A DNA stretch of 64,000 bases from a virus (IMGVR_UViG_3300037047_000246); one strand, 5' to 3'; counted from the stretch's first letter, positions 17,261 to 58,674 are shown. Notes: a model not told the origin generated them from the letters alone. Numbers and translations are program-made.

Positions 17261-17436
17261 TGCCTTGAGGCCATCCCGCGCTCCTTCTTCTTGCGGCGAG
17301 TCATCAGCCACCACACAAGCTTCGCCACCTGCCTGTCCGACATCCCATCCGTCCGCAGGCGCAGCCATCCCGCCAGCCGGCGCAAACCCACCAGGTTCAG
17401 ACGCTTGGCCTGGTTCAACTCCGATTTGGTCACCAT
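17257..17436 (-). CDS. 59 aa basic micro-protein, below the track cutoff
   Basis: MVTKSELNQAKRLNLVGLRRLAGWLRLRTDGMSDRQVAKLVWWLMTRRKKKERGMASRQ*, coupled at both ends. Confidence 0.6.
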   Translation of the reverse strand: MVTKSELNQAKRLNLVGLRRLAGWLRLRTDGMSDRQVAKLVWWLMTRRKKKERGMASRQ

Positions 17437-17951
17437 CAGGATGCATGAACCCCCGACACGACAACTTCATTGAACACTGTCTGAACATCTTCTGGCGTCA
17501 AGCCTTCGCGCATTGCCTCCGCCATCTGGTCACGCAGCCGGCGGTTAGCTCTGAAGCGAATTTTGGCGTGCAAATCTCTCGAAACGGCATCCCACACAAT
17601 TCCAGCAAAACTGGTCAGCGTGGGCCAGCGGCCGATAAGCTGGTCGCTGGCCAGGCCACTACTCGCCACCCAATCATTGTCAGTCCATGCGAGTGCCAAG
17701 AATTCCAAAATCCGCGCCTTCGGCCTATGCGCGTCGATAATCCCGCCGCTGATTGGCAAATTTCTGCCGCCGCTTGAGCAGCGATATGCGGCGAACTTCA
17801 TCATCACCAACCTAGATTCCAAGTCGAACTCGACGTCATGTACGTCGATACGAGCTTTGGCGCCGCCGTACAGACGATGGACTAGGTTGCACCTGTCGGT
17901 CAGCACCAGGGATGACTCAATGTCATCCAAGACTGCCTTGAGCTTCATCAT
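17436..17951 (-). CDS. Hypothetical protein with helical tag (VSGVHAS)
   Basis: ...AMREGLTPEDVQTVFNEVVVSGVHAS*. Confidence 0.7.
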   Translation of the reverse strand: MMKLKAVLDDIESSLVLTDRCNLVHRLYGGAKARIDVHDVEFDLESRLVMMKFAAYRCSSGGRNLPISGGIIDAHRPKARILEFLALAWTDNDWVASSGLASDQLIGRWPTLTSFAGIVWDAVSRDLHAKIRFRANRRLRDQMAEAMREGLTPEDVQTVFNEVVVSGVHAS

Positions 17952-17965
17952 GTCGACCGTTACTT

Positions 17966-18196
17966 TTATGAATTTTGGACTTCCTCAATTATCAGCTCGT
18001 CCAAGGTCTTCTCAACTATCGGATAGCCTTTATTGACCCAGTTGGCCACAACCTCCAATGTCATTGCAGCAGCATGCTTGCGACACCTGGCCGATGTTCT
18101 TTTACCATCTCTGGACAGCATCTCGAACCACCGAGCAGCCGGCTTCCCGCACACTCCTCCTGCACCATCGCAGACCATCGGGATGCCCTTTTTCAT
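17966..18196 (-). CDS. Zinc-finger family A member with tag (IEEVQNS)
   Basis: VCDGAGGVCGKPAARWF...ARCRKH...EKTLDELIIEEVQNS*. Confidence 0.75.
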   Translation of the reverse strand: MKKGIPMVCDGAGGVCGKPAARWFEMLSRDGKRTSARCRKHAAAMTLEVVANWVNKGYPIVEKTLDELIIEEVQNS

Positions 18197-18394
18197 GGTA
18201 TGGTCCTTGCCAATTTTAGGACAAGTTTTAACAATTTTAGCATACAGTTGTAAGCACGTGCGGCGAAAATTTGCAAACGGGTCTGACTAAAATTTTGATC
18301 CTAACGCAATTTGCATGTTGCAACTGATTGGGGGATCAGTGCCATCATAATTCATCATGCAATGCCACTCTGGGTTACATGGCCATACATTAAC

Positions 18395-18937
18395 TCATGA
18401 TTCGTGAATGTGCATCACATCCAACATTGAGTCCACTTGTCGAGAAAACTCATCCCATTCTGGCCAATCTCGGTCCGGCACTTTGCTAGGACCCGACAGC
18501 AGCGATCGTTCGGACGGCAAAACTTTGCCAGAGCGCGGATCAACAGCGTCGCCCACTTCGGCACACGCCATATGCCATAGCCAACCCCGTTTTCTCGGAA
18601 TAAGCTTTGACTCAACTATGCCACTGCTGATTACACTGTCGACTATCCAGTCACCGCGCACGCGAGCAAATTGCCAAATGGGCGCTTCAGTTATCTGGTA
18701 GGGACGAAGCGGATCTGCCGACTGCAACCTTAGGAGCGCAGCCGTCTTGTCAGCAAAGGTCATGAAAAAGGTGGCTTCGCTGCCGCAGCATCGGACCAAA
18801 ATTTTCCAACAATCAAACGTCAGCTCGAGCATGGCGGACTGAGTCGAGGCCAAGTTCAAATTTTTGACTACCCTCAAGTTGACATTGGCACCGCCAACTG
18901 TCTCGTAAGCATGGAAGCCGGTTGCCCTTTTCATCAT
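18395..18937 (-). CDS. Hypothetical protein with tag (VMHIHES)
   Basis: 180 aa track ORF. Confidence 0.65.
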   Translation of the reverse strand: MMKRATGFHAYETVGGANVNLRVVKNLNLASTQSAMLELTFDCWKILVRCCGSEATFFMTFADKTAALLRLQSADPLRPYQITEAPIWQFARVRGDWIVDSVISSGIVESKLIPRKRGWLWHMACAEVGDAVDPRSGKVLPSERSLLSGPSKVPDRDWPEWDEFSRQVDSMLDVMHIHES

Positions 18938-18990
18938 CTCACTCCAGTTCGGCGCTGTTCTCTGACAACCCAGGCGCTTGCCCTAACGTC

Positions 18991-19332
18991 TCATTTCCTT
19001 CCAAGTGCTCTGCGCATCTCCAGGCGGTTCTCGCGTCCCACTGAGGCTTGTACCAACCCCACCCTTGCTCCACTGCATGCTGCGGATTTTCGCAGTTTCT
19101 CCTGCAGCTCCACACCACGCACCGAATCACTGTTTCTCTCATATTCAACACCAAGTTTGACTGCGCACCCGCCGCAAATGTAGTACAAATTCCCGTCGCC
19201 AGACGGGCAGCTATTGCGCACAAGCCACCCAGGAGGCGGCAGGTGCCAAAGCTTGCGCTTGACGAACGCAGTTTGCACGAACGCAGATGTGCGGCACTCG
19301 CAACATGCCACTCTTTCGGTTTTGGAACTCAT
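18991..19332 (-). CDS. CxxC zinc-ribbon hypothetical protein
   Basis: CCECRT...YICGGCA. Confidence 0.55.
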   Translation of the reverse strand: MSSKTERVACCECRTSAFVQTAFVKRKLWHLPPPGWLVRNSCPSGDGNLYYICGGCAVKLGVEYERNSDSVRGVELQEKLRKSAACSGARVGLVQASVGRENRLEMRRALGRK

Positions 19333-19352
19333 CGAGACAAATTACGCCTGAG

Positions 19353-19604
19353 CTACTCGCTGTGCACTTCAATCACAGCAATGGCGTCCGGGCTAATTTC
19401 CTCCCACAGTATGTGCCGCGGCGGACTGTTTGGACCGCCAAAATGCCAGTTGCCGTCCCACAACCGCGTCATCATGTCAGCGCAGGAGCTGCAGTATTGC
19501 AAAATGTTGCGGTCGTCATGATTTGTGAGAAAGACGCGCGTGGCCTCCAATGCACACTGCGGACGGAAGCACTTCACAACAGATCCTTGGTGCAGCAAAT
19601 GCAC
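19353..19604 (-). CDS. Zinc-finger-like protein with tag (VIEVHSE)
   Basis: ...YCSSC...WEEISPDAIAVIEVHSE*. Confidence 0.65.
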   Translation of the reverse strand: MHLLHQGSVVKCFRPQCALEATRVFLTNHDDRNILQYCSSCADMMTRLWDGNWHFGGPNSPPRHILWEEISPDAIAVIEVHSE

Positions 19605-19837
19605 CCCCTTCCTCCGCAGTCAGAACACTGCGGAGGAATGGTGACCGACGCGGCTGCCGGCCGAAGCTGGGCAGGATCTGCCTCGATTTGCACCGGGCCG
19701 GACCGTAGTGGGCACGACGCAGGAACGCAGTTTCTGTCAGGAGAGACGCTTTCGCTCAACCTACAGCCGCTCATGGGCGGGAATTCCACGCTGAACAGAC
19801 AAGGACACCCGACGCACGACTTAATGATTAGGTTCAA
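19574..19837 (-). CDS. Cys-rich micro-protein
   Basis: SCVGCPCL...CPL...CSDCGGRGCICC. Confidence 0.55.
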   Translation of the reverse strand: MNLIIKSCVGCPCLFSVEFPPMSGCRLSESVSPDRNCVPASCPLRSGPVQIEADPAQLRPAAASVTIPPQCSDCGGRGCICCTKDLL

Positions 19838-19882
19838 TTTGCTGCTCCGACAAATCCTAAAGACGAAAGTCGTAAAACATCA

Positions 19883-20608
19883 GTGTACAGTCGGAAAATG
19901 CCTAAATTCGCCGTGTTCAGCGATCTGCATCTTGACTTCCATCGCGATGGTGGTCGCGGGTTGATCCGTTCCTTGCCGAAGGAAGTGTGCTTGATGGCTG
20001 GAGATGCAAGCTCTGCCCCGATGCTGCTGGCTTCCTTAGCTTTAGCCTGCGAGCACTTCCCTCGACTCATTTACGTGAACGGGAACCATGATCTGTATGC
20101 GTCCAGTCCAACCGAGCTAGCCGAGGTGAGACGCATAGCCACAGAGCGACACCCAAACTTGTCGTGGCTGGAGCGAGGAACGTGCACGATTGACGGGACT
20201 CGCATCGTTGGCTCGACACTGTGGTTTCCGCCGTCTAACGCGCCAAGAAGCGGGCTGAATGACTTCTTCCAAATTCGGGACTTCGACCCCTGGGTGTGGC
20301 AAGAGCATGAGCGAGACATGAAGTTTCTCGAGGCCACGCTGAGGCCGGACGACGTGCTGCTTACGCACCATTTCCCGCTCCGGCAGTCAATTGCCCCAGC
20401 ATATGCCTCCTCGGCGCTGAACCCATTCTTCTGGGCCGGAGCCGACGCTGAGGAGCTCGTGCTCAAGCACATGCCGCGGCTGGTCATCCATGGCCACACG
20501 CACGACTGCATGTCGTACGAAGTTGGCTCTATGCGCATCGAGTGCAATCCTCACGGATACCCGAGCGAGAACCTAGCCTTCGACTTCTGCCGCATCGTCG
20601 AAACCTGA
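19883..20608 (+). CDS. Calcineurin-like metallophosphoesterase
   Basis: SDLHLD, AGD, GNHD, THH and HGHTH motifs. Confidence 0.93.
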   Translation: MYSRKMPKFAVFSDLHLDFHRDGGRGLIRSLPKEVCLMAGDASSAPMLLASLALACEHFPRLIYVNGNHDLYASSPTELAEVRRIATERHPNLSWLERGTCTIDGTRIVGSTLWFPPSNAPRSGLNDFFQIRDFDPWVWQEHERDMKFLEATLRPDDVLLTHHFPLRQSIAPAYASSALNPFFWAGADAEELVLKHMPRLVIHGHTHDCMSYEVGSMRIECNPHGYPSENLAFDFCRIVET

Positions 20609-20609
20609 C

Positions 20610-20903
20610 TCACTCCGAGTGCACCAGCGCCACCAAGACCTCATCCCAAGTGAGTCGCAGCGGCCAATAGACCGAATCGTGCTCGGCGCAACGGGGATGA
20701 ATCCAGCCTGTAGAAGAGGACACGCACCAGACCACGGCTGGCGCGTCGCACGGCTGCGCCGGTCCGATGTTCTCCTTGCAAAACTGCAGGCCGAGATCAG
20801 TCAGAATCCCAGAGCTTATTTCTGGCACTGGCGCCTCTTGAGATTTGATTGGCGGACGAGACGAATGGCTCGCGTCACGACTCCTGCACACGCGCCACTT
20901 CAA
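20610..20903 (-). CDS. Zinc-finger family A member with tag (VALVHSE); true start probably internal
   Basis: PCDAPAVVW...PRCAEH...LTWDEVLVALVHSE*. Confidence 0.6.
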   Translation of the reverse strand: MKWRVCRSRDASHSSRPPIKSQEAPVPEISSGILTDLGLQFCKENIGPAQPCDAPAVVWCVSSSTGWIHPRCAEHDSVYWPLRLTWDEVLVALVHSE

Positions 20904-21153
20904 GCCAGGCGTACTCGTCCAAATGCTCCTGGCACATCAGCAGACTTCCGACAAGAGAGTCGTCGGGGGCTTTGCCCATAGCCTCGCTCTCGCACTCGGC
21001 GACCGAGCACAAGCCCTGCTCCCGGTTTCTCGGGCTGAACACGCCCAGACAGGTTGCCATGCGGGAGCTTACATTTCGAGAGCGCTGAGCGGCTTGGCCG
21101 GCGGCGGTACAGTTCTCGCGGAGCCGAACCCAGTCAGGAGCACTCCCTGCCAT
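20875..21153 (-). CDS. Zinc-finger protein with tag (VARVQES), paralogue of 24447..24674
   Basis: GVFSP...CSVAEC...LMCQEHLDEYA shared with the paralogue. Confidence 0.7.
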   Translation of the reverse strand: MAGSAPDWVRLRENCTAAGQAAQRSRNVSSRMATCLGVFSPRNREQGLCSVAECESEAMGKAPDDSLVGSLLMCQEHLDEYAWLEVARVQES

Positions 21154-21571
21154 GAACGCATACGACCAAGCCAGCTACGCCCACGCAATCTCGGAGTTCG
21201 TGCGAAAGCTCAATGAAGTGGCGGCGCCCGTCGAGATTGGCCAGACCTGGGTCCGCATAGCGCCCTTGGACAAGGCGGACATAGGCGCGTGCGAGCGAGA
21301 CCCCAGGCTTTTGCCTTTCCTGCACGTCGGGTCCTTGGCCGAGATCGTCGACGCGGACGCGCGCTTCGTGCAGGTCCGGGTCGGAGGAGACTCGATCTTG
21401 CTGGAGCACGAGGTCTTTCTGCGGACGTTTGTGCGCGCTGCGGCCTCGCCGGATTGGGCGGCGCGGCCTCCTGCAGCGCGAGACGGAGCTGCTCTTGGGC
21501 GAGCAGGAGAGCCGCGGACAGCGCTTAATCCTTTCGACCAGCCGCGAAAGCTGTCTGAGCGGATCGAATAG
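21152..21571 (+). CDS. Hypothetical protein, possibly SH3-like
   Basis: IGQTWVRI...VGSLAEIVDADARFVQVRVGG...; SD-like AGGAG upstream. Confidence 0.55.
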   Translation: MNAYDQASYAHAISEFVRKLNEVAAPVEIGQTWVRIAPLDKADIGACERDPRLLPFLHVGSLAEIVDADARFVQVRVGGDSILLEHEVFLRTFVRAAASPDWAARPPAARDGAALGRAGEPRTALNPFDQPRKLSERIE

Positions 21572-21635
21572 AGCAGAGCGAATCAGGCACGCTGCGCTGG
21601 GCGGACAACGGCAATGGCGGAGCCATGTCCACCGC

Positions 21636-22049
21636 TCAAATTTTCTCCCAGACAGCCTTGATGCGGCCAGAGCACGTCTGGATGCCGTTCAAAAACACCG
21701 TCTTGCGCTCGATGGCGGTGCCGCTCTTCGCATCCCTGGTCCAAGAAGCCTGTCCGACAGTTCTGACCACGCCGCCGTTTGCTGCGGGGCACATGGTGTC
21801 GCATGAAGACATGCAGTTGTCTGCAGAGTAGTCGATCGGCCCGGTGCATCCAAGCGCCTTGATGCTTTCGGTGGTGGGCTGACTGCTCAAGCTGACGATT
21901 TCGTTTGCAGGAGCGGAGCAGGTGCCGTCTTGATAGGAGTATTTGACTTGGTAGGTGCCGCGCCGCTCGGCGCAAACGTCGAGGGAGTCTCCTTGCTCAG
22001 AGGAGCATCCGACCGACAAAGCCAAAATCAAAAGTGCGCAGAATTTCAT
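21636..22049 (-). CDS. Cys-rich lipoprotein, paralogue of 30537..30986
   Basis: MKFCALLILALSVGC lipobox; GGAGG SD. Confidence 0.8.
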   Translation of the reverse strand: MKFCALLILALSVGCSSEQGDSLDVCAERRGTYQVKYSYQDGTCSAPANEIVSLSSQPTTESIKALGCTGPIDYSADNCMSSCDTMCPAANGGVVRTVGQASWTRDAKSGTAIERKTVFLNGIQTCSGRIKAVWEKI

Positions 22050-22142
22050 ATATCCTCCATTCCTAGGGGATTACGCCAAAAGCGGCAGCACTTCCACCTT
22101 CTACTAGCTGCTTGTTGATCAGTTTGGCCAGTACCTCATGGT

Positions 22143-22376
22143 TCATGGTCGTCTCCTTGTCCCGGCAGGCCTTGGTCGACCAGGTCGAGCGACTCCTGCC
22201 GGACCTGCTCGACCATCCGATGATGCAGCCATGACGTCCGCGCCGACAGCGTCACCCACCACGAAATCGTCACCTTCCCAAGCCGCATCTCTTATGCTGT
22301 TTGCGTAGTGCTCTTCGAATTCTGTCTGAGTCAAGTCAAGGTGCCCGGAAATAAACCAAGTCGTCATTGTAGTCAC
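22143..22376 (-). pseudogene. Truncated SLOG/YspA-like protein
   Basis: WFISGHLDLT...FVVGDAVGADVMA N-terminus followed by a low-complexity R/P/G tail that looks out of frame. Confidence 0.4.
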
Positions 22377-22549
22377 TCACTGTCGTCATATTGCCGAGAT
22401 GCCCTAACCTCTCGGATGCGAAAGCGGTCAGGCAATAGAAATCGACTGAGTGACTCCAGAAAGCTCTTGACTTCGTAATCACTCGCGCCAACCGCAGGAT
22501 CGACTTCGAGCGTGAAGCTGACTTCATACTTGTCTTTTTCGGAGGCCAT
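22373..22549 (-). CDS. Micro-protein
   Basis: MASEKDKYEVSFTLEV...; coupled to the downstream gene. Confidence 0.5.
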   Translation of the reverse strand: MASEKDKYEVSFTLEVDPAVGASDYEVKSFLESLSRFLLPDRFRIREVRASRQYDDSE

Positions 22550-22611
22550 GAATGAGGTTACGCTCGATGCAGACGAGTTTACGCTATTCACTCACACGCC
22601 GCCAAACGGAC

Positions 22612-23274
22612 TTATCCGCTCATGATGTTGGTGATCATCCGCTGCCTGCAGGCTTCAGGGTCATGAACCTCGGAGCGCGCATGGCGCCGGGTCTTGCCGC
22701 TGCACCAGGGACATTCTCCCTTGGTGCGCCACTCAAACATCAGCCGACGTTTAGGGGCAGATGTGGCCGATCCTGAAACACGAGCTTGTGCCAACTGAAC
22801 ACTCTGGTTCCTGATGTAAGTGCCATCGTTCAACTTGAACAAATAACCTTGAGCAAGCAAATAGCTGAGCACGCCCGGTACGCTGTCCCTTCGGCCAAAG
22901 TCTTCAATCTTGGCTTTGCCGATACGCTCGAACACCTTGCGGACTCGGAGCAGCACATCGGGGTCCACCTGGGGCTTCGGGACGGGAGGCGGAGGCGGCG
23001 CGCTCGGGGCGCACCTGTACAATCGGCCATCTCGACGCAACCGCCCGTCGTGCACCATGCGCTGCAGGCAGTCGTCGACATCGTCGACGTGCTCGCCAAG
23101 AGCCTTCGCAATCTGCATCGGGTTGTGCGCTCGGTAACGCCAGTCGTACCCTTGAAACACGGCGTTACCGACGCGGATCAACAAATCAGGGCGAGCACGA
23201 CGCAGCGGAGGACGCTCAACACCAGATTTGTCTTCCGACTTATGCTCGCGGCGCCTGTCGCGGTTCTTGGCCAT
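22612..23274 (-). CDS. Basic protein with putative winged-helix segments and a zinc finger plus tag (ITNIMSG)
   Basis: PMQIAKALGEHVDDVDDCLQRMVHDGRL...; CPWC...H...C...ITNIMSG*. Confidence 0.65.
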   Translation of the reverse strand: MAKNRDRRREHKSEDKSGVERPPLRRARPDLLIRVGNAVFQGYDWRYRAHNPMQIAKALGEHVDDVDDCLQRMVHDGRLRRDGRLYRCAPSAPPPPPVPKPQVDPDVLLRVRKVFERIGKAKIEDFGRRDSVPGVLSYLLAQGYLFKLNDGTYIRNQSVQLAQARVSGSATSAPKRRLMFEWRTKGECPWCSGKTRRHARSEVHDPEACRQRMITNIMSG

Positions 23275-23460
23275 TTGCTCCTTCAGAGGAAATCATCCTC
23301 GTCACTGCTCCATTACGTCAGCCGTGTTGGAGTCAGCTGAGTAATCCGCCCACAACTGATGCTGCGCGAAGCTATCGGCCTCGATGCGGTAGACCACATC
23401 GGCGAATCTCGGATCTTTGCTCACGCTAGGGATTACGCGCAAGGTAGCCGAATCTCCGGT

Positions 23461-23823: not shown

Positions 23824-23843
23824 GTCCGGAGATTACATCTAGC

Positions 23844-24224: not shown

Positions 24225-24243
24225 GGCCTCAGCACAGACCCCG

Positions 24244-28084: not shown

Positions 28085-28792
28085 ATGCCGAAATCTTACG
28101 GCGCGGGAGGCCGGATTTGCGCCGGTGTAAGTAGGAGCATGGACAAAGCATATGCAAAAAAGTCTTTGAGCGCCGGAAGTCTGAGCAAGAGAGAGACGGA
28201 GGCAGACCCCGAATGGGACGCGGAGGTGTCGCAAGCGCTGTTGGAGCTTGCCGCCGTCAGGCTGGCCGAACAGGATGCCCGAGCTGCCGCGAACGCCATG
28301 GCTCGGGTGCGCCGGCGCAAGAAGGCCGCAGACGCGATGTCGGCGGCGATCCAGGAAGTCGTGCCTGAAGCGCTGGCCATGCCTGTGGAGGTACGCGCAG
28401 ACGAGTCCGGCTGGCCGCGGGTCTGGCTGGGGCAGGAGGTCGTGCGGATGCACCTTGGAACCGCGGAGTCTGTGCTCGAAGGCCGGATGATCGATATGGC
28501 AGCCTCCCGGTGCTCCGTCGCCCAGACCGGGATGAACAGCCTGGACGAGGGGGATTTGAGCGACTTGCCGAGCTGGGCTGCCATCAACCCCAAAGCATGG
28601 GCTGCCAAAACGCAGGAGCTCGTCCGAGCATGGGCGCAGATGGAGCTGCAGACGGCAGCCATGTCGCTCAGCGCGAAGACGGTGGTGATGTCGGGCATCT
28701 CGAGAGCGGAGCTCGGTGAGATGTTCGCCCAGGCGTGGGACCGAGCCCAGTGCCAGGACGTGCACGAGGAAGAAGGGTCCCAGGAACAGTGA
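28085..28792 (+). CDS. Hypothetical helical protein with a sub-terminal tag (CQDVHEE plus 6 residues); start uncertain
   Basis: ...GISRAELGEMFAQAWDRAQCQDVHEEEGSQEQ*. Confidence 0.65.
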   Translation: MPKSYGAGGRICAGVSRSMDKAYAKKSLSAGSLSKRETEADPEWDAEVSQALLELAAVRLAEQDARAAANAMARVRRRKKAADAMSAAIQEVVPEALAMPVEVRADESGWPRVWLGQEVVRMHLGTAESVLEGRMIDMAASRCSVAQTGMNSLDEGDLSDLPSWAAINPKAWAAKTQELVRAWAQMELQTAAMSLSAKTVVMSGISRAELGEMFAQAWDRAQCQDVHEEEGSQEQ

Positions 28793-34557: not shown

Positions 34558-35160
34558 TTACGAGTCTTGCACCTGTTTGGTGACTAGGTCCTGCAGAAAT
34601 TTCTCCAACACCTTTTCGGACGGGTTCCTGATTCTACAGATAGTGCCGTCCCGCCGGACAGCTTCGAGCTGCACCTTTTCGGACGGCCGCTCTATGTACT
34701 GAATTGCCCAACTGTTTCGCCGTACTGCTGCAAGCTGCACCTTTTCGGACGGCCGCTTGATGAACTGTACAGCGGTCCAGTTTTTCTTGACTGCTGCAAG
34801 CTGGACCTGCTCGGACGGACTTTTGATGCACTGAATCGAATCCCCGTCCATTTTGACTGCTGCAAGCTGCACCTGCTCGGACGGTCGCTTGATGTACTGG
34901 ACTGAGCGCCAATTCTGCCGGACTGCTGCAAGCTGAACCTGCTCGGAGGGGTTTTTGATATACCGGATCAACCAGCCGTTCTGCCGGACTGCTGCGAGCT
35001 GAACCTGCTCGGAGGGGTTTTTGGTATACCGGATCAACCAGTTTTGCTTGACTGCTTCGAGCTGGAACCGCTCCTGGCACAGACCCAGCGCGCATTTCAA
35101 GCCCAACTCGAATGCCACTTCAGGAGTCAGTCCGTACTTTTTCAACAAAGACTTCAGCAT
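34558..35160 (-). CDS. DUF4116-like 22-aa tandem-repeat protein with tag (TKQVQDS)
   Basis: About seven copies of PSE(Q/K)VQLAAVxxNxxxI(Q/R)YI. Confidence 0.88.
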   Translation of the reverse strand: MLKSLLKKYGLTPEVAFELGLKCALGLCQERFQLEAVKQNWLIRYTKNPSEQVQLAAVRQNGWLIRYIKNPSEQVQLAAVRQNWRSVQYIKRPSEQVQLAAVKMDGDSIQCIKSPSEQVQLAAVKKNWTAVQFIKRPSEKVQLAAVRRNSWAIQYIERPSEKVQLEAVRRDGTICRIRNPSEKVLEKFLQDLVTKQVQDS

Positions 35161-36289: not shown

Positions 36290-36412
36290 CCAGGCGCGAC
36301 GCTGCTGCGGCGGCGCGGGCGGCGGGCCGAGCGAGCGGCGCGCGGCGCGCGGAGCGCGGCGCGCGGACGGCCCAAGCGCTCGGCGGCGCGAGCCAGGCGC
36401 GCGGCGCCGCTC
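36290..36412. repeat. Near-pure GC low-complexity intergenic tract
   Basis: GGCGCGCGG and GCGGC units; very few A/T bases. Confidence 0.8.
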
Positions 36413-36908
36413 ATGACTCGTGCACCAGTTCCACTTGAACTTCGCTTACCGTTTCCAGCATCTGCTCGTGCGTGCCGCCCCGCTTGAAGAACGTCCGAAC
36501 GGCACGTTGCAAATTATCTTTTGCTGACCTCAAAGCCTCTTCGGCGTTTGAGGCGTCTGCTTGGGCGAACTGCTCTGGCGGAATGGAGGCGACGAACTCG
36601 ACGAACTTTTGCTGTAATATCAGGAAAGTTTGTTCGTAGTCTGATGACCAACTGTCGCAGCAAGTGTTGGCGTACTGCTGCAAACTGTTTGATATGATCT
36701 GCAGGTCTTCGGTGCGAGAAGGCTTTCTGAACGAAATGAACCAAGATGGCCTGGGGTCGTAGTCACCCAAGTGGGCCCGAGGCGTGTCGTACTTCGGATC
36801 TCCCGTGACGAACCTGGCCGACACCCTGGACCGGCTGAATACTCGGTCCAGCTCGAAGTGACCTTTCCGAGCCATTCGCTCCATGCGCTTGCGATCTCTA
36901 TCATTCAT
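36411..36908 (-). CDS. Hypothetical protein with helical tag (VELVHES)
   Basis: ...FFKRGGTHEQMLETVSEVQVELVHES*. Confidence 0.75.
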   Translation of the reverse strand: MNDRDRKRMERMARKGHFELDRVFSRSRVSARFVTGDPKYDTPRAHLGDYDPRPSWFISFRKPSRTEDLQIISNSLQQYANTCCDSWSSDYEQTFLILQQKFVEFVASIPPEQFAQADASNAEEALRSAKDNLQRAVRTFFKRGGTHEQMLETVSEVQVELVHES

Positions 36909-37372: not shown

Positions 37373-37573
37373 TCAACTGTTGTGCACGAGCCACAGCTCG
37401 GCTTCTCGCTCTGTGATTTCCGTATTCGCAAACAGCCAGCGCCCGTCCGGGTGTGGGCAATCGTCTTCTGCGTGCCATTTGCACCAGGCTACAAGCTCCT
37501 GCCCTAGTGTGGCAAACCGGACAGCTGTGCAGCGGCATTTGCGGTCGTCATCGTCCACGTAGTTGCAATTCAT
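37373..37573 (-). CDS. Zinc-finger family A member with tag (LWLVHNS)
   Basis: Paralogue of 37662..37856. Confidence 0.8.
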   Translation of the reverse strand: MNCNYVDDDDRKCRCTAVRFATLGQELVAWCKWHAEDDCPHPDGRWLFANTEITEREAELWLVHNS

Positions 37574-37683
37574 GACTCTTGCACCGCCTCGACCACGGTC
37601 TCTTTGACGAGCTCGGCCAGCTCCTGCTCAAGCTCGTCGGTGTCGGCCCCGGCGGCGTCAGTCAGCTTTGATGCACCAGCCAT
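37570..37683 (-). CDS. 37 aa micro-ORF consisting mostly of the tag helix
   Basis: MAGASKLTDAAGADTDELEQELAELVKETVVEAVQES*; ATGA overlap with 37373..37573. Confidence 0.6.
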   Translation of the reverse strand: MAGASKLTDAAGADTDELEQELAELVKETVVEAVQES

Positions 37684-37856
37684 ACCTCGGCCTCTTGTTC
37701 GGTCACTTCAGCATACAGGAACAGCCAAATGCCGCTTGCGTTCAAACCAAGCGCGTAATGCGCCTCGCACCTGGTCACCAAATAACCGTCGCCCGTCAGG
37801 GCGAACCGGACAGCTGGTCCGTTGCAGTACTCGGTTTCTGAGTGGTTGCATTTCAT
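37662..37856 (-). CDS. Zinc-finger family A member with tag (VWLVHQS)
   Basis: MKC...CNGPAVRFA...TRCEAH...EVTEQEAEVWLVHQS*. Confidence 0.8.
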   Translation of the reverse strand: MKCNHSETEYCNGPAVRFALTGDGYLVTRCEAHYALGLNASGIWLFLYAEVTEQEAEVWLVHQS

Positions 37857-37866: not shown

Positions 37867-38337
37867 TCACGACTGGTGCACTCCCTCGCAAATGGCTTCC
37901 CTCACGAGCTGCTGCAGCTGCTTTTGCGTCATGCCGCGGTTGACCAGATCTTGCACTTGCTCCTTGAAAGCTCGGCACTTCAGTTCCAAATTCCTTTTGT
38001 CCAGTGCCCGGCGTGAAGACTTGGCGCCGGCGGCAGCTTGGCGCAGGGCCTTCGCCACAGCTTTTTGCTGACCAGAGTCGGCTCTGGCCTCGTTTGCCCG
38101 AGCGGCCACCTGGCCGGACAGCTGAGCGGCGTCCTGCTCGGACAAGCAGACTCCGAAAGACAACGCCCAAGCGCGCAAGTGCTCTTTGGTTTTGTCAACG
38201 TCTCCTGAGTCCAGAACTTTGCACTCGACATATTTGCTGCCTGCAGCGGACTTGAACAGCACCGGCACGGACACTGGCACGGACACTTTGCCGGAGCCGT
38301 CCATCCAGAGTTTGCCGAGTCCAACCTCAAACTTCAT
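37867..38337 (-). CDS. Hypothetical protein with helical tag (CEGVHQS)
   Basis: AAGGAG SD after the promoter cassette. Confidence 0.75.
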   Translation of the reverse strand: MKFEVGLGKLWMDGSGKVSVPVSVPVLFKSAAGSKYVECKVLDSGDVDKTKEHLRAWALSFGVCLSEQDAAQLSGQVAARANEARADSGQQKAVAKALRQAAAGAKSSRRALDKRNLELKCRAFKEQVQDLVNRGMTQKQLQQLVREAICEGVHQS

Positions 38338-51133: not shown

Positions 51134-51515
51134 GCATGATCGAATTCAAATCGGCCGGGGCGACGAGGTCTGGCAAGCGGGTGCAGGCGCACTTCAAAGT
51201 GGACGGCCAAACCCGGTGCTGGACTTTGACGCCGACGCTCGCCGAGCAGTTCAAAAAGCAGTTCGATAGAGGCGGCACATCGAGAGACATCACCGTGTAC
51301 CAAATGTTGGCGAGCATGATCGGAGGCGACACGATCAGGCTGCGCCAGACCGCGCAGGAGCGCAAGATGCAGCATCGCGTGCAGCGCTGCGGCTGTCCGA
51401 GGCCGACAGCGCGCTGGTCGCATGGACGAGGCAGGCGCTGCAGTTTGGCATGAGCGATGCCAGGCTGCGCGAGATCTTCGAAGAAGCGATCGTGCAAAAC
51501 ACGCACGAGTCGTGA
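51130..51515 (+). CDS. Hypothetical protein split by a frameshift near 51380, or followed by a 21 aa tag-only micro-ORF (51450..51515)
   Basis: The alternative frame reads AALRLSEADSALVAWTRQALQFGMSDARLREIFEEAIVQNTHES*. Confidence 0.65.
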
Positions 51516-51561: not shown

Positions 51562-51690
51562 TCCCAGTTTAATTGGAGGACTTCTGCCTCACATATTAAA
51601 TTGGCTACTGCGCGGAATGTCGGGCCATCGTCCGCGCCATCTCGCCCGGCCAGGTGTTCCTATTAGCTACTGTCTAGACGCATGTTGGCC

Positions 51691-52406: not shown

Positions 52407-52444
52407 AGCATCCTCAGCTTGTATTCCATCCCCAACACCAAACT

Positions 52445-53416
52445 TTACTTCTTGTGTTTGGCCGCCCACTCCTCAAGCGTCGGGATCTTGACGGGACCGC
52501 TGTTGGTCTTGATAGCTTCGTGCGAGTAGTGCTCCATCAGCACGCGCCACAGAGCGACGCGCGCTGCTGGGTGCTTGGGAACGATCCAACCTTTCTCAAC
52601 GCGATCGAAGAAGGCGCGGGGGATGGCGCCGCAGGCTCGCCCGAACTCTCGGGTCCAGCTGGCGCGCTTGATCCAGACATGGTGGTTGCCCGCATGCAGC
52701 TTGGAATCTTTGATCTGACCAATGACCAGCGAATTCCGCAGGGTATTGGCGAGACGCCCGTATCCGAGCATCTCAATAGCATTGCAACAGGCCGGGTGCA
52801 CCGGCGATTTGCGATTCAGAGCTGCGATGCGCACCAGGCCGTTCATCAGACCGCGCAGGCCAAACGGCTTGTAATGCTCTATCAGAAATTCGACCAGAGC
52901 CGGGTACTCCGCGAGCTCGATCATTGCACCCATTTCGTCAGAGTCTATGGGATCCTCGGCATATCCCTTGCCGGCGCAGTCCGGTCCCAAACATCGCTGG
53001 ATGCTCAGTGCATCGGTCAGCGGCATGCCGCAACTGATGCACTTCTCCGCGATGCCGTTCAGCACCATCGTGCCGTGCACCATCTTCTCGGTCGAGATGG
53101 CCCCGACGATCGCCTTGGACAGCTCCAGGCGGCGGGCCTTCTGCTCCGCGGTCTCGGCCTGAGCGGCCGGGGCGGCCTGAACGGCGGGGGCTTCGACTTC
53201 GGGGGCGGACTCGGCCTGAATGGCCGCGCGCTCCTGCCTGTCGAAGTCCTTCTCGAGCTGCACGGCCTGCTCCTCGCGGCCCTCTTCGGCTGCTGCAGCA
53301 GCCTCTTCGGCTTGGGCGATCTCGGCCAGGTCAGAAGAGGCTGGGGGCGGCTCGCTCGCTGGCTCGCTCGCGCCAGAAATGAGTGCATCCAACTGCGCCA
53401 AGAAACTGTTCGACAT
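52445..53416 (-). CDS. DUF6011-like zinc-finger protein with an acidic/Ala-rich N-terminus
   Basis: CISCGMPLTDALSIQRCLGPDC; GGAGGTGA SD. Confidence 0.8.
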   Translation of the reverse strand: MSNSFLAQLDALISGASEPASEPPPASSDLAEIAQAEEAAAAAEEGREEQAVQLEKDFDRQERAAIQAESAPEVEAPAVQAAPAAQAETAEQKARRLELSKAIVGAISTEKMVHGTMVLNGIAEKCISCGMPLTDALSIQRCLGPDCAGKGYAEDPIDSDEMGAMIELAEYPALVEFLIEHYKPFGLRGLMNGLVRIAALNRKSPVHPACCNAIEMLGYGRLANTLRNSLVIGQIKDSKLHAGNHHVWIKRASWTREFGRACGAIPRAFFDRVEKGWIVPKHPAARVALWRVLMEHYSHEAIKTNSGPVKIPTLEEWAAKHKK

Positions 53417-53419
53417 GCT

Positions 53420-53472
53420 GTCACCTCCGCTCCTCGGTACGCGCACAGCGCGCACACTTACGATTTCGTTCC
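53420..53472 (-). promoter_or_regulatory. Promoter-like cassette
   Basis: GCGCGTACCG...GGAGGTGA-cagc-ATG. Confidence 0.7.
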
Positions 53473-53569
53473 ACTCGCGGTCCTGCTCTGCTATGACCTG
53501 CTGCTTGATGGCTCCCATACGGTCACCTACTGCAAATGTGCCGGGATTTACAGAGTTCAGCAGTTTGCG

Positions 53570-54292
53570 CTATTCGTCTTGCACCGCTTCCACCATGACT
53601 TCGTTCCAGGCCTCTGCAATTGCAGCACTAACAGCCTGTTCAAGGCTACGTCGGTCTGTTTCACGAAGCACGCCAAGTTTCGTCATCATCTTCTTCGTCA
53701 CACTTTTCAAATGTTCGGCAATGGCTGCAGATATAGCAAGGCCTCTGAGTTCAGACCATTTGCGAAGAATTTCCTGCATCCGCCGCACGCCTATCACTTC
53801 CTTGCAAGCCGCATCTATCGCTTCATTAAATCTGCCCCCTTATCATGATCGTCAAACCACCATTGCTGCGACAAGCAACTCTCTAAAATCTTTCCATGAC
53901 GCCATTTTTCCTCTGCCACAGTCCGCACCGCACGAACAACGTCTTTCTCGTCAATCGAGTACCAGCTAAGCTCCCTGCTGTTGTGTCTCAAAATGTTCAT
54001 GTGTGGCTCGTCGTCAAGTTTGACTGTGATCCCCCCATGCGTCAATGTTGGCAGACACGGCTTCATACCGAAGCCGCAGGTCACCCTCCTTGGCACTCTT
54101 CAGGACGCTAGCCAAGTTCCTTTTATAAGACGCCTTATTTGCAGCTGCCTTTGCAGCCTCCATCTGTTCAACTCGCACCGAGCGAACTTCATCATTCATC
54201 TTTTTCATCAGACGTTTGACTGTCGAAGCAGGGAGGCCTTTTTGTTTGCACAACCGTTCCAATTCTTGCGTCAAACACATATCGTCTCTCAT
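53570..54292 (-). pseudogene. Probably one tagged protein (ends VEAVQDE) broken into three ORFs at G-homopolymers
   Basis: Track ORFs 54014..54292, 53815..54096 and 53570..53797 join at the G6 (54031-54036) and G5 (53835-53839) runs. Confidence 0.55.
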
Positions 54293-54465
54293 GAATCTTG
54301 CACCATCTGCACCGCGATTTCGCGAACTCGGTCACTTATCTCTTCCGGCGACAGGCCGAGCTTCAACAGAGTTTCCACGCCTGTACGAAGGGACTGTTCC
54401 GCAAGCTCTTTGGCGAGTTTCAGATTCCAATCAGGATCTCCGCCTTGTTTGTCACCTTTCGACAT
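54289..54465 (-). CDS. 58 aa helical micro-protein with tag (VQMVQDS)
   Basis: MSKGDK...LLKLGLSPEEISDRVREIAVQMVQDS*; GGAGTGA SD. Confidence 0.7.
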   Translation of the reverse strand: MSKGDKQGGDPDWNLKLAKELAEQSLRTGVETLLKLGLSPEEISDRVREIAVQMVQDS

Positions 54466-54497
54466 TCGGTCACTCCACGTTCCAAGGTTTACGCAAA

Positions 54498-54749
54498 TCA
54501 GTCTGTCTGCACGCGGTGCACTATTCACTCTTCGAACGAAATTTCCGATATGCCAAGCAGTGCAAATTGTGGCGAGTGGTACTCGCAGCGCGCCAGCGTT
54601 TCCCCGTCTGCGCGAAGGAAGAAGTGCGCTGCGAATTTTTCGCACTGTTTTAATGGTGAAGGGCTGAGCCCAACATACACGAGACAAAATGCTTCGCACT
54701 GCACGCGGCCAAGAGCTGTCGCCCGGTCACACATCCTGCACTGCCTCAA
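54498..54749 (-). CDS. Zinc-finger family A member with an in-frame TGA at 54525-54527 just before the tag
   Basis: QCEKFAAHFF...ARCEYH...SEISFEE*IVHRVQTD*. Confidence 0.7.
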
Positions 54750-55176
54750 CCAGCACCTCTTTGCACATAACGGCGAGCTCCTGCTCCAGGGAGTCCAACG
54801 TCTCGCCGCGCCTGACCAGGTCGACCAGGAGGGGTCGAAGCTTGCGGATGCACGCTCGGACTCGGATCTTGGTGTTGGTCAACTCGCGTTTCGGCAACCC
54901 AGCGAACCCTTGCGCAATCGCTGCCTCGAGCCGGTCCAGGTCTTCGGCCGGCAGCTCGCAGCACGAAATGTGTCCCACGGATGCCATCGCCGATCTCGTA
55001 GAGGCTAAAAACCAGCTTCCTTCTTCATGCTGCACGATGTGCGAATGCTCATCGCGATTAAATTGACCTTCGTAGTATCGAAGTTGTTTTGCTGCTCCAT
55101 TGTAGCTTACCGAGATCATGACTCTTGGTAAGCTCCTTTTCAGGGCAGACGTCCGCGGCTTCCCAATTTCAATCAC
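54727..55176 (-). CDS. Hypothetical protein with helical tag (VEAVQDV)
   Basis: ...DLVRRGETLDSLEQELAVMCKEVLVEAVQDV*. Confidence 0.7.
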   Translation of the reverse strand: MIEIGKPRTSALKRSLPRVMISVSYNGAAKQLRYYEGQFNRDEHSHIVQHEEGSWFLASTRSAMASVGHISCCELPAEDLDRLEAAIAQGFAGLPKRELTNTKIRVRACIRKLRPLLVDLVRRGETLDSLEQELAVMCKEVLVEAVQDV

Positions 55177-55511
55177 GGCACTTTCTCCAGAGGCACGATC
55201 CGCGCCGGGTTGCTGCGGCTGTCGATGTAGCGCTGCAGCTGCTGGGTGCAAATTGCGCACAGCGCCTTCAGGCGCCCGTCTTGGGTGTGCATAGGCTTCC
55301 CATCTTTGTCGACGAGCATCTGCGTGGCTTCGACCGGATGCGCTTCGAGCCAAGCCCGCCTGAACTTCTCGAGCTGAAAGCCGCGCAGCTTTGCGGTGCG
55401 ATTCTGGCAAATTGCTTTGCCCTCGCGGGCGAGAGTCGTGACGTAGACTTTGTCGAGGTGCAGATGTAAATGGCTGTAGCAATTCATATCAGTCGCCTCC
55501 GCCGTCGACAT
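55173..55511 (-). CDS. Zinc-ribbon hypothetical protein
   Basis: AICQN...LCAIC; GGAGG near the start. Confidence 0.6.
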   Translation of the reverse strand: MSTAEATDMNCYSHLHLHLDKVYVTTLAREGKAICQNRTAKLRGFQLEKFRRAWLEAHPVEATQMLVDKDGKPMHTQDGRLKALCAICTQQLQRYIDSRSNPARIVPLEKVP

Positions 55512-55534
55512 GTGTATGTTCGAGAATGTTCGAG

Positions 55535-57115
55535 CTAAGGCCGATCATGCCGCAAAGGCGCCACACGGCCAAACGCGGGCTTGAATCCGGTGTTGTTCCG
55601 GGTCAGCACCCACACCACGTCGATCCCGCGCGGGCGCAGCTCCAAGGGCACCACGCCGCAGTCGCCGTCAGTCAGGACGATGATGACGTCGAATTCGGTC
55701 CCCAGATGCTTCGGGAAATCCCGAAAAAACTCATCGAATACTGTTCCTCCGCGACCCACCACTTTGGTGCGTTTCAGGTCGGTGGCCTTCTCGACCTTGT
55801 GGACCCCGGCCCAATGTGGTTGGGCGTCGCAGGGGATGACGTACCCTTCGGTATTGCTGCCCAGCACCTGCAGCTGAGAAATCCCGTAAGCCATGTCGTC
55901 GTCGCCCATGGATCCGGAAGTGTCCAGCATCGCCAGCCACCTGGGCTTGTGGGTGTAGCGCTTCGGCAGGTACTGCCGGGGCGTGGTTTGCAGGTACCGG
56001 CGGCGCAGCCGATGCCAATCGTTGTTGAGGCCCGCGTCCTGCACCTTCTTGAGCAGAGCCGACCTCACGATGTCGGTGAACTTCAGTGTCGGCTTCTTGA
56101 GCTCGCCGAGCATTCCCTCGATCTCGGAGGGCACGGTCCCCCTCATCTGGGCGGATTGCTCGGCTGCGCGCATCAGGTCCGCTTGAACCTCTTGCTGCGT
56201 CATGTCTGTCTCGATGTGCGAGTCCATGCCGCCCAATCTGTCGAAGGGGCTGCCGCATGTGTCGCAATGATCTCCGCCGCATCCGCCGCACCCCTGCCCT
56301 GGATTTTGACCGGGCTGGCCCTGGCCGGGCTGGCCCTGACCGGACTGCTTCTGGCCCTGGCCGGGCTGGCCCTGACCGGACTGCTTCTTCTGCCCCTTGG
56401 GGCCCATCGACAGGCTGCCGCAAGACGGGCACTTGCGCGGCGACTTGTTCCAGTGGTCGATGATTTCGTCGTAGATGCTCTCGGGCGACCGGCCGTGCAG
56501 CGATTTGTCGGCGAAGCAGAACTCGTCCTTGGGCAGCTCCTTGGTGCCGTCGATGTAGGCCAGAAACTCTCCGAGCAACATCGGCTGGCCGATGTTGCCG
56601 CCGAACAGCGTCCCCTTGCGGCCGGTCTTCTCCTGGTCGGACAGGATGCACGCGTTGACCACGTAGTCGACAGCGATGTTCCAGACCTTGGATTGCTTGT
56701 CGCGGCCCCGCTTCGGGTGGAAGAACACCACGTGGTAGCCTTCGTGCTGCATCACCGTTGCGATCTCGTCCGGGGTCAGCGTCGCCAGGAACACCGGGTT
56801 CCAGTAGTACTTGCGGCCATCGGTGGCGGCCGTGTCGACGGTCTGGCCGCCGAGCTTGATCACAAGCTCGTGGCACTTCGGGGCGGACAGGGCGAACAAA
56901 AACGGGTTGCCTCCGTTTTCAGGCTTCTTGAACAGCCTGGTCATGCAGGACGTGACCTTCTCCTGCAAATCGTGCAGGCGCACGCCCTTGAACGCCTTGC
57001 GCATCTTCTCGAGCTTGTCTTTGGGGAACTTGTCGTCCTTCTCGAGAGCGTCCAGCCAAAGGACGGCCTCCTTCTCCATCACGTCGCGCGGGTCGGACAA
57101 ACGGGAACCGATCAT
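55535..57115 (-). CDS. HExxH metallopeptidase-like plus VWA-domain protein (DUF2201-type MoxR partner)
   Basis: TAATDG, VMQHEGYHVV (HExxH), WNIAVDYVVN, MIDAS motif LDTSGSMG, GGGT and VLTDG; Q/G repeat linker. Confidence 0.93.
   Translation of the reverse strand: MIGSRLSDPRDVMEKEAVLWLDALEKDDKFPKDKLEKMRKAFKGVRLHDLQEKVTSCMTRLFKKPENGGNPFLFALSAPKCHELVIKLGGQTVDTAATDGRKYYWNPVFLATLTPDEIATVMQHEGYHVVFFHPKRGRDKQSKVWNIAVDYVVNACILSDQEKTGRKGTLFGGNIGQPMLLGEFLAYIDGTKELPKDEFCFADKSLHGRSPESIYDEIIDHWNKSPRKCPSCGSLSMGPKGQKKQSGQGQPGQGQKQSGQGQPGQGQPGQNPGQGCGGCGGDHCDTCGSPFDRLGGMDSHIETDMTQQEVQADLMRAAEQSAQMRGTVPSEIEGMLGELKKPTLKFTDIVRSALLKKVQDAGLNNDWHRLRRRYLQTTPRQYLPKRYTHKPRWLAMLDTSGSMGDDDMAYGISQLQVLGSNTEGYVIPCDAQPHWAGVHKVEKATDLKRTKVVGRGGTVFDEFFRDFPKHLGTEFDVIIVLTDGDCGVVPLELRPRGIDVVWVLTRNNTGFKPAFGRVAPLRHDRP
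56315..56392 (-). repeat. Q/G-rich coding tandem repeat in the VWA-protein linker
   Basis: KQSGQGQPGQG twice, followed by QPGQ. Confidence 0.8.
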
Positions 57116-57118
57116 GTT

Positions 57119-57172
57119 GTCACCTCCATGCTGCGGTACGCGCCGCAGGGCGCGATCGCCGCTGCGCGTTGA
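57119..57172 (-). promoter_or_regulatory. Promoter-like cassette upstream of the VWA gene
   Basis: TCAA-N28-CGTACCG...GGAGGTGA-caac-ATG. Confidence 0.7.
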
Positions 57173-57175
57173 ATG

Positions 57176-58039
57176 TCATACCTGTAGTTCAATGAGTATC
57201 GCCTGTATGTCATCCACCCCGATAAACCTAAGCAGTTTGATAAGCAGCAAACGGGCTTGTCGCAGATGATGTTCTCTGCGCACAGTTTTTTCACGCTCAG
57301 CTCTGGCCGATGCAATTTTTGCTTTATGATCATCGGACAATCGCTTGCCTAGGTTTGCTGCACTTATCTTCGCACGCATTTCGGTGGTCCACGTCCGGTC
57401 TCGACCGGCTTGAGCAGCTCTTTCTCTGGCCAAAGCAGGCCACCCCGAATTTTTGCGAATAGTCGTCTTCCTGTGCTTGGCCGCCTCACTCATATGCTGC
57501 CTGACCTCAGGCGTATACACGCGCTCTTTGGCAGCTTGACTCATCTTAGTTAGAACGTCGGGTCGCGCACAAACCTCCCGAGAAGCTTCTGCTCTTTTGA
57601 CCTTGGACTCGGATGTGCCGAGCGCCGCTTTGTTTGCAGCCCGAGCCTCTTGAGTATGAAGATGGCTGCGGTCAATTGTCATTTGCTTGGCTCGATACTC
57701 CGGGTCGTCCCAAGGATTTTTGCGAACCGGATGCGGCTTGTGTTGCTCACCCTTAGCCAGATTGAAGCCAAACTCGGGGTTGCGAGTGTCATAAAACTCG
57801 ATCCATTTCTGTTCGGCGGCATTGGCCTCTTCGAGCGTTTCACATACTTCGAGCACTTCGTGCTCGAACGCCTCAGGCCCATACTTCCGGATGGCGTTTG
57901 GGAAATGCCAGCGGCCGCCCCTTGTGGATTTGGCTTGGCAGACATGCTGCGCCCAACGCCGTTCCATTGTGCGTTTGGTCAGTCCAACATACCTGCGTTG
58001 CGACTCCGTGTGTATGTGGCAGTAGACAGTCCAACCCAT
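57176..58039 (-). mobile_element. GIY-YIG homing endonuclease with NUMOD3-like repeats, paralogue of 46941..47864
   Basis: WTVYCHIHTESQRRYVGLT...GFNLAKG...GKRLSDDHKAKI. Confidence 0.9.
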
Positions 58040-58062
58040 GCTGGACCGGTTCCATAAACGAA

Positions 58063-58674
58063 CTAAACTTTCATGACTCCTTCCACGAAGCACTCGTCCA
58101 CGATGCGGTGCAGGTCTTCCCTTGTCGCGCCCTTGGCGATGGATGCTTTGAGCGGACCCATCAGGTCTGCCATGTGCAGCTCGAGCGGCGAGACCGATGT
58201 CCTGAGCTTGGCCCGCACATTGGCGGCGAGCACGTCGATTTGCGGGTGGTATTCCAGAGTCGGGTCCTCCCGCAAGACCTTTTCGACAGCCTTCATCATT
58301 CGGCAAGCCGCGTCGCTGCTCCAACTGTGCACGGTGTTGCCTTTGTTCGGCCCGTGCTCCAGCACTCGCCCTTTGCCGAACATCTCGGCGCAGTGCTTCG
58401 GCCAGCCGGCATACAGCAGCGACGCCACCAGCAGCGCCTCCAGGCGCGGCCTGGGGTCGTTTGGATGCCGTGGCGCTAGCGAAAGGACGTTCGTCGACAG
58501 CAAAACCCCGTTTCGCTGCGGATATACGTGCACCACGAACGAGCGGCCTCCTGCGCCCTTCATGGTCAGGCAGTCAGCTTCGAGAAAGTCCCAGGCGGCA
58601 GACCCTTCAATCATTTCGCGGACCGCGGCCTCCGCAGCTTTTCGCTGAGCCACTGTCCGCCCAAGTTCGCTCAT
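58063..58674 (-). CDS. Hypothetical protein with helical tag (VEGVMKV)
   Basis: ...SIAKGATREDLHRIVDECFVEGVMKV*; GGAGGTGA SD. Confidence 0.75.
   Translation of the reverse strand: MSELGRTVAQRKAAEAAVREMIEGSAAWDFLEADCLTMKGAGGRSFVVHVYPQRNGVLLSTNVLSLAPRHPNDPRPRLEALLVASLLYAGWPKHCAEMFGKGRVLEHGPNKGNTVHSWSSDAACRMMKAVEKVLREDPTLEYHPQIDVLAANVRAKLRTSVSPLELHMADLMGPLKASIAKGATREDLHRIVDECFVEGVMKV

Follow-up and report, generated by a model that had tools for sequence, protein, structure and literature searches.

Biology repeatedly uses shared terminal peptides to let one machine handle many unrelated proteins, as exemplified by peroxisomal signals, the cargo peptides of encapsulins and microcompartments, secretion signals, and degrons. 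The cargo-loading peptides of encapsulins are C-terminal and dock unrelated cargo on the inner face of a shell with the HK97 fold (PMC8346489). WXG100/type VII secretion substrates are helical hairpins with a C-terminal recognition signal that is read by an ATPase (PMC3935865). In MoxR AAA+/VWA chaperone pairs, metal sites of the VWA partner bind an acidic group of an exposed peptide (PMC7159879). The subject here is a group of proteins, Family C, encoded in a 64,000-nucleotide stretch of DNA (the window) from a huge phage, IMGVR_UViG_3300037047_000246, ~1/6 of whose proteome bears one such terminal label. Family C is a structural sub-class of this tag system, in which the label comes with a defined presentation, i.e. 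a 46-residue hairpin of exact register that is kept at guanine + cytosine (GC) contents of 45-69% while the attached proteins turn over rapidly. A literature search found no description of the tag or of the hairpin and no paper describing the label, and the tag system is, as far as searched, undescribed in print. We give about an even chance to the reading that we favor, namely that Family C represents a conserved C-terminal α-hairpin, a rigid stalk that displays a common docking tag, and is not currently a mobile cassette.

The window is located on the minus strand of one virus record of 362,524 bp, at bases 297348-361347; the record has terminal repeats and a GC content of ~57%. The closest whole relative used for comparison was IMGVR_UViG_3300036987_000310 (376,674 bp, 51% GC; the 377-kb relative), with which ~245 proteins are shared, and a more distant relative, LR745208.1 (485 kb; ligase 44% identical), was compared in full. 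Gene calls are rough and our own, with starts assigned by a model combining codon usage and Shine-Dalgarno sites; protein-database gene calls were also used.

The Family C module comprises a helix, an invariant Gly, a Ser/Thr cap, and a second helix of ~20 residues. At ~46 residues it is longer than the ~30 residues given in the first-pass annotation of the window, and it extends well upstream of the 25-30 residues quoted there. Fifteen representatives, each from a different body family or a separate contig, were compared with residues numbered back from the C terminus: Gly is present at -22 and Ser/Thr at -20 in 15/15 each, Val at -7 in 14/15, and Glu at -10 and Val at -4 each in 13/15. Helix 1 has hydrophobic residues at -33, -29, -26, and -25. 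A further hydrophobic residue, at -21, separates the Gly from the cap; the cap is followed by Glu at -18, Asp/Glu at -17, hydrophobic residues at -16, -13, and -12, and Asp/Arg at -11. The last 10 residues, E-x-x-V-x-x-V-[H/Q/M]-x-S followed by the stop codon, constitute the tag, in which -8 is hydrophobic, -3 is Met, His, or Gln, -2 is polar, and -1 is usually Ser. Three further members have a four-residue (one-turn) insertion that places the Gly at -26.

The statistical support for the module is of several types. The motif G-x-[S/T] is present at -22 in 7 of 69 tagged proteins, compared with 0.43 per other offset (Poisson p 4e-7; 1e-5 after correction for 32 offsets). A hidden Markov model (HMM) built from 14 members returned these with E values of 2e-17 to 2e-9; the next match was at 6e-3 and none was in LR745208.1. 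With leave-one-out models, from which orthologues were excluded, 10/14 members ranked 1-3 among 33,723 six-frame open reading frames (ORFs). The first-pass observation of a recurrent module is confirmed, and there is a sharp gap in E value after the 14 members. Between body families, identity over positions -24 to -11 is 23%, versus 8% to other tagged tails of the same register; for helix 1 the corresponding values are 14% and 6%. The module is real, with a modest signal upstream of the tag.

The last ten residues are not peculiar to Family C and represent a tag of the whole phage clade. The strict pattern V-x-x-[V/I]-[H/Q/M]-x-x is present at the end of 63 six-frame ORFs in the whole genome, versus the 4.6 expected from the internal frequency of the same pattern, and a gene end is ~180 times as likely to have the tag pattern as an internal position, again in six-frame ORFs. 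When the pattern is relaxed to [V/I/L/C]-x-x-[V/I/T]-[H/Q/M]-x-x, it is present at the ends of 74 of 477 genes, versus ~5 expected by chance; for the window alone the count is 40 of 133, and for the 377-kb relative 81 of 510. Of 22 orthologue pairs, 20 retain the tag, with His, Gln, and Met interchanging; the -2 residue is acidic in only 58% of tags. A set of 23 metagenome loci, each surrounding a homologue of the window's AAA gene, had 94 tagged ORFs versus 6.3 expected, at GC contents of 45-68%. One short contig (L061, 1.1 kb, 69% GC) carries two adjacent Family C genes within positions 2-969, with tails ATMEV and SVQER, indicating that the architecture persists over a very wide GC range. 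In LR745208.1 the tag was not found (21 seen versus 23 expected), nor was an alternative C-terminal bias.

Tagged proteins are small, nearly all without a known domain, and located in the accessory arm of the genome. They are shorter than untagged proteins (median 99 versus 148 residues) and turn over faster, a homologue in the relative being present for 30% of them versus 55% of untagged proteins. Pfam searches with ten larger tagged proteins outside Family C returned only one named domain, DUF4116; the protein in question (window 34558-35160, E 9e-11) has a paralogue with the same tail outside the window. A translated ribosome-binding site or an overlap with the start of the next gene was ruled out as the origin of the tag by codon and spacing evidence, since Ser is encoded by both TCN and AGY, the Val, His, and Gln codons vary, all three stop codons are used, and the downstream spacing varies. 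The tag is selected at the protein level. A role as a translation-termination device was considered, as the phage has unusual termination genes, and was rejected, the stop-codon usage of tagged and untagged small genes being near-equal (p 0.047 in this genome, 0.64 in the relative).

The distribution of the helix-cap box [S/T]-x-x-[D/E] relates Family C to the other tagged proteins. In tagged proteins the box occurs almost only at -13 (9 of 69 proteins here, 8 of 76 in the relative) or -20 (6 and 5, respectively), whereas its distribution is flat in untagged proteins; examples of cap-box tails in the window are at 37373-37573, 37662-37856, and 20610-20828. A cap at -20 corresponds to Family C and a cap at -13 to short-tailed families. 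These peaks suggest two preferred lengths for the terminal helix, seven residues (two turns, one heptad) apart, plus the variant with four additional residues. On a helical wheel these helix starts are all on the same side relative to Val -7, at 100-140 degrees, and within Family C the hydrophobic residues in the first half of helix 2 (-16, -13, -12) lie ~130 degrees from those of the tag (-8, -7, -4).

The Family C genes of the window, together with two smaller related ORFs, are as follows.

17436-17951, minus strand: Family C gene, 171 residues; module in the terminal 46 codons (17439-17576), Gly at -22, tail VHAS.
28085-28792, plus strand: Family C gene, up to 235 residues (50 residues in the database call); module at 28634-28771, a variant with a four-residue (one-turn) insertion.
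36411-36875, minus strand: Family C gene, 154 residues; Gly at -22 and tail VHES.
37867-38337, minus strand: Family C gene, 156 residues; the best-populated family, with >20 homologues, all with module and tag.
51136-51515, plus strand: frameshift-broken Family C gene; body from 51136 to ~51373, module at ~51363-51512 in the -1 frame.
54289-54465, minus strand: minimal Family C protein (P0011), 58 residues, essentially the hairpin alone; tail VQDS.
54727-55176, minus strand: Family C gene (P0050), 149 residues in our own call or less (130 residues in the database call); Gly at -26, i.e. one extra helical turn, and tail VQDV.
58063-58674, minus strand: Family C gene, 203 residues (183 residues in the database call); all 7 homologues have the module.
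37570-37683, minus strand: micro-ORF, 37 residues, terminal helix and tag only.
53570-53788, minus strand: tagged protein, 72 residues, related to the module at the borderline only (E 0.014 in the initial, 25-residue HMM).

The eight peptides quoted in the first-pass annotation all exist as letter-for-letter matches at the C-terminal ends of open frames. In seven of the eight the stop codon follows immediately, and these end exactly in hydrophobic-x-x-[V/I/T]-[H/Q/M]-x-x. The eighth (28694-28771, plus strand), from the 28085-28792 gene, has the tag VHEE followed by six extra residues, EGSQEQ (window 28772-28789), before the stop codon; a distant homologue (P0058) has a comparable extension, VHEH being followed by EGSLF, and the non-terminal tag in this family may represent a masked or processed form. 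The earlier reading had over-extended the 5' ends of three frames, for which the likely genes are 37867-38337, 54727-55176, and 54289-54465. The description as helix-turn-helix is not supported in the DNA-binding sense, there being two terminal helices only and no convincing Pfam match: searches with the eight proteins at E <= 1 gave no helix-turn-helix family and only noise, e.g. SinI at E 0.049, and the best E values, for helix-turn-helix or other families, were 0.005-0.3, all below curated cut-offs.

For the broken gene at 51136-51515, an intact homologue (P0030), a single protein of 152 residues, matches 51139-51373 in one frame and then continues in the -1 frame at 51363-51513. The 36411-36875 gene has a probable syntenic orthologue, with a similar tail and the same gene order, at 7871-8338 of L058, a third related phage contig, and a homologue search with the 17436-17951 protein returned only itself. 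The micro-ORF at 37570-37683 is either a remnant of a Family C gene or a tail-only copy. In the 53570-53788 protein the last 12 residues resemble the tail of the 54727 protein (67% amino acid identity), without the G-x-S/T turn. The Family C genes are dispersed among other tagged genes and do not form a single tandem array.

That the N-terminal bodies share nothing visible, as had been noted from the sequence alone, is borne out: BLAST gave self matches only, single-sequence HHalign comparison of the bodies matched only two known orthologue pairs, and profile-profile HHalign comparison of body alignments gave probabilities of <=8%. No family for the Family C bodies was found in Pfam or PHROGs. 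The AlphaFold model for the 37867 family (predicted local distance difference test score, pLDDT, 84) has two strands, two helices, and a helix of 46 residues (88-133), followed by a turn at Gly135 and a helix (138-155), with low confidence for the last 6 residues. The model for the 58063 family (pLDDT 72) has a mixed α/β body consisting of a helix, five strands, two helices, two strands, and two helices; in its C-terminal part a low-confidence linker (160-167) leads to a helix (168-180), Gly182, and a helix (185-201), the last 4 residues having pLDDT <50. As modeled, the two body topologies differ, and a fold search of the PDB with both models gave no match at E <= 0.001.

Scoring 1.84 billion representative proteins with a profile built from 16 module sequences gave 60 matches at a cut-off of E <= 1e-3. 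Of these, ~38 are proteins of 41-211 residues in which the match is at the extreme C terminus and ends in the tag; clustered by body, the small matches fall into at least 14 unrelated families. On those of their contigs that were retrieved, adjacent genes are tagged as well, at GC contents of 45-69%. Another ~20 are long proteins with 4-7 matching stretches, helical-hairpin repeats with G-[A/M]-[S/T]-x-x-E; these multi-repeat matches are generic look-alikes. In the profile searches the module was not seen at an internal or N-terminal position, or in LR745208.1. Close relatives of the Family C proteins were found neither in IMG/VR, searched by peptide patterns, nor in GenBank phages, searched by tblastn, and the 23 metagenome loci around the AAA gene gave no orthologues of the bodies of the 58063, 54727, and 54289 proteins; an ESM Atlas look-up of the 58-residue protein gave no usable match. 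The profile, with its ~38 proteins among 1.84 billion, provides annotators with a means of recognizing members.

In the mechanism that we favor, the module, an antiparallel α-hairpin of ~46 residues, would serve as a rigid stalk. Helix 2 would zip onto helix 1 through its first half (-16, -13, -12), and the hydrophobic residues of the tag, being on a separate face, would be held out at the free C terminus, with the last few residues flexible, for binding by one common putative partner; it is the separate tag face and the flexible end that suggest such presentation. In each family body and hairpin are inherited together, and Family C constitutes one of the two preferred tail lengths. Two-face packing, which is read from sequence periodicity, docking as the function, and a single reader are proposals; a minimal bait for such a reader could be the 58-residue protein that occurs naturally or a reporter fused to the final 22-46 residues. 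Several observations weigh against this reading. In the leave-one-out test only 3/14 members are recovered when the last 10 (tag) columns are omitted, so much of the module signal comes from the tag itself. The best matches of the module profile among PDB sequences are de novo designed helical repeat and hairpin proteins (best E 4e-6); the front half of the module thus resembles designed and natural repeat hairpins, and the G-S/T-x-x-E turn could be a generic cap rather than a mark of common descent. The 5-6 residues after the tag in the 28085/P0058 family imply that a free carboxylate immediately after the tag is not universal. The orthologue of 37867 on a related metagenome contig, L059, has Tyr at -3, whereas its neighbors keep Gln/His; lineage-wide co-variation at -3, which was considered as a sign of one co-evolving pocket, is therefore not seen in L059.

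It had been proposed in the first-pass annotation that the module is mobile and shuffled between genes, and in its strong form, i.e. a C-terminal cassette moved by recombination that the present hosts acquired recently and independently, this appears unlikely. The presence of the same module on at least 14 unrelated bodies is consistent with such movement, as is the dispersal of the genes; the micro-ORF at 37570-37683 matches the tail of 54727-55176 with 68% identity over its last 60 nucleotides, a value within the top 0.1% (~99.9th percentile) of all tail pairs, and gives the sole hint of a tail moving or existing on its own. By contrast, profile searches by body alone, which were run on two families over 5.8 billion proteins, gave 15 homologues for the 37867 family and 7 for the 58063 family, down to ~28% identity, all of which have the hairpin and the tag (with His, Met, Tyr, or Phe at -3); no body homologue that lacks the module was found. 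Orthologues in three related phages, among them the 377-kb relative and L058 (61% GC), keep body and module in synteny, with the same gene order next to the ligase gene in these two. The module is ~50% identical within families versus ~25% (23-28%) between them at the protein level, which argues against recent exchange, and, the one pair aside, there is no nucleotide similarity between tails, the remaining top-ranked pairs being paralogues over the whole gene; nor was the module seen outside the C terminus or outside the clade. We conclude that the body-hairpin fusions are old and stable, with shuffling possible as a distant origin and not ongoing; early in the clade, the hairpin probably became attached to different bodies, or the bodies themselves were replaced. 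A tentative alternative, less easily set aside, is convergence: only the 10-residue tag would be under shared selection, and Family C would be the structural class with the commonest type of hairpin connection, a Gly C-cap and an S/T-x-x-E N-cap adopted independently by proteins with a last helix of ~20 residues. The poor recovery without tag columns, the matches to designed hairpins and repeat proteins and to natural multi-repeat proteins, and the low helix 1 identity between families are in accord with convergence, and the quantized tail lengths (caps at -13, -20, and -24) could come from structural or receptor constraint alone. It accounts less well for the exact register, with Gly at -22 in 15/15 families of that register, for the common hydrophobic residues at -16, -13/-12, and -8 and the Asp/Arg at -11, for the excess identity over -24 to -11 relative to other tagged tails, and for the sharp E-value gap, with no continuum into other tails.

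Other alternatives concern what the tag does. It may be a signal for timed degradation or remodeling, although we regard this as rather improbable; the putative reader would be a MoxR-type AAA+ ATPase (60659-61765) working with a VWA-metallopeptidase (55535-57115), the metal site of which would bind the C-terminal carboxylate or an acidic -2 residue, with the hairpin as the handle that is pulled. Both genes are present among the Family C genes, and the VWA protein, which matches DUF2201_N and DUF2201 and has a Gly/Gln/Pro-rich linker and Cys clusters, has intact HExxH (HEGYH at 124) and metal ion-dependent adhesion site (MIDAS; DTSGS at 398) motifs. The ATPase has weak matches (E 8e-5 to 4e-4) to AAA_2, AAA_5, AAA, and AAA_3, with the curated cut-off reached for AAA_5 and AAA only, such that the MoxR-type label is a reading rather than a firm assignment. 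For the two proteins, identity to the counterparts in the tagged relative is 73-82%, whereas the tag-less LR745208.1 gave no match at E < 1e-5; tags are enriched at loci around AAA homologues of at least 54% identity, and VWA MIDAS capture of peptides via an acidic group, with subsequent remodeling of the client by the MoxR partner, has precedent (PMC7159879). However, ~170 other genes have the same pattern of presence and absence, tagged ORFs are lacking at two loci whose AAA homologues are 45-47% identical, and an acidic -2 residue is far from general. A predicted complex of the VWA-metallopeptidase (with Mg and Zn) and the module alignment scored 0.00, a value that was obtained without controls and bears neither way on binding. 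That the hairpin is instead an element of self- or hetero-association, a helical bundle linking tagged proteins with no separate reader, seems very doubtful. Both helices are amphipathic with heptad-like spacing, and the 58-residue member is little more than a hairpin, a structure that seldom folds into a stable monomer; an oligomerization helix, however, needs neither the extreme C terminus nor conservation of the last four residues, and the tag is common to proteins with differing tail lengths and contexts. The ~180-fold preference for the chain end, which is otherwise unexplained, favors a docking or address peptide over an oligomerization helix. At the speculative end, and by analogy, hairpin and tag might be a portable loading handle by which one phage-encoded reader, most radically the inner face of an HK97-type capsid, collects ~70 small, fast-evolving proteins; a phage version is conceivable in that the encapsulin partner has the tailed-phage capsid fold, but we consider it a long shot. 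If it were true, the phage would pre-package host-takeover or anti-defense proteins and inject them with its DNA, and Family C would be the version of the handle that is rigid and has a longer reach.

With respect to the surroundings of these genes, the window encodes functions of phage type, including DNA ligase, a Mom-like/nuclease fusion, adenylosuccinate lyase (8778-10229; Lyase_1 and ADSL_C, E 1e-46), the MoxR-like AAA+ ATPase, and the DUF2201 VWA-metallopeptidase. The fusion (58679-60577) is large, comprising a treble-clef zinc finger (DUF4379) and a restriction-endonuclease-like domain, with a weak match to the Mom family that is below the cut-off; its gene is directly upstream of the Family C gene at 58063-58674. 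On a distant contig a DUF4379 protein is located near DUF2201 and a homologue of the 37867 family (P0069). In L059 (1538-4019) a LAGLIDADG endonuclease gene on the opposite strand (2844-3707) is present between the ligase gene and a 78-residue ORF; both of these have the ligase OB-fold domain, an arrangement that resembles a homing-endonuclease insertion or a duplication.

The nearest described analogues of the Family C system, i.e. the encapsulin, type VII, and microcompartment peptides, work alike and are not the same family. WXG100 proteins have a hairpin of similar size, the second helix of which ends in a conserved C-terminal recognition pattern. By contrast, the turn of the phage hairpin is without W-x-G, Trp is never present at -24 in the 15 representatives, and the hairpin is appended to bodies of 100-180 residues rather than being the whole protein; PF06013 (WXG100) has no match in the complete phage genome, whereas control genomes match. 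The encapsulation peptides of microcompartments (PduP, PduD, EutC) are similar in being short amphipathic terminal helices, on a linker, that are present on unrelated proteins and have a common shell partner. Microcompartment peptides are, however, mostly N-terminal and need no fixed distance to the chain end, whereas the phage tag is C-terminal and at a fixed distance from it, and a search of the complete 362,524-bp genome for the shell gene family PF00936 gave no match, with E. coli and Synechococcus matching as controls.

The MoxR-VWA systems resemble the present one in that the phage encodes such a pair, with motifs intact, among its tagged genes; we know of no MoxR-VWA system with dozens of clients under one C-terminal consensus. 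The likeness to the encapsulins lies in a short peptide at the extreme C terminus of unrelated proteins, often on a flexible or helical extension, that a single partner recognizes. In composition the encapsulin peptides are rich in Gly, Leu, and Ser; they are not helical, and in sequence they are unrelated to the phage tag. They serve one to few clients, compared with ~74 tagged clients per phage genome, and their cargo consists of enzymes, whereas the tagged proteins are small phage proteins, nearly all without a known domain, for which capsid binding is only conjectured.

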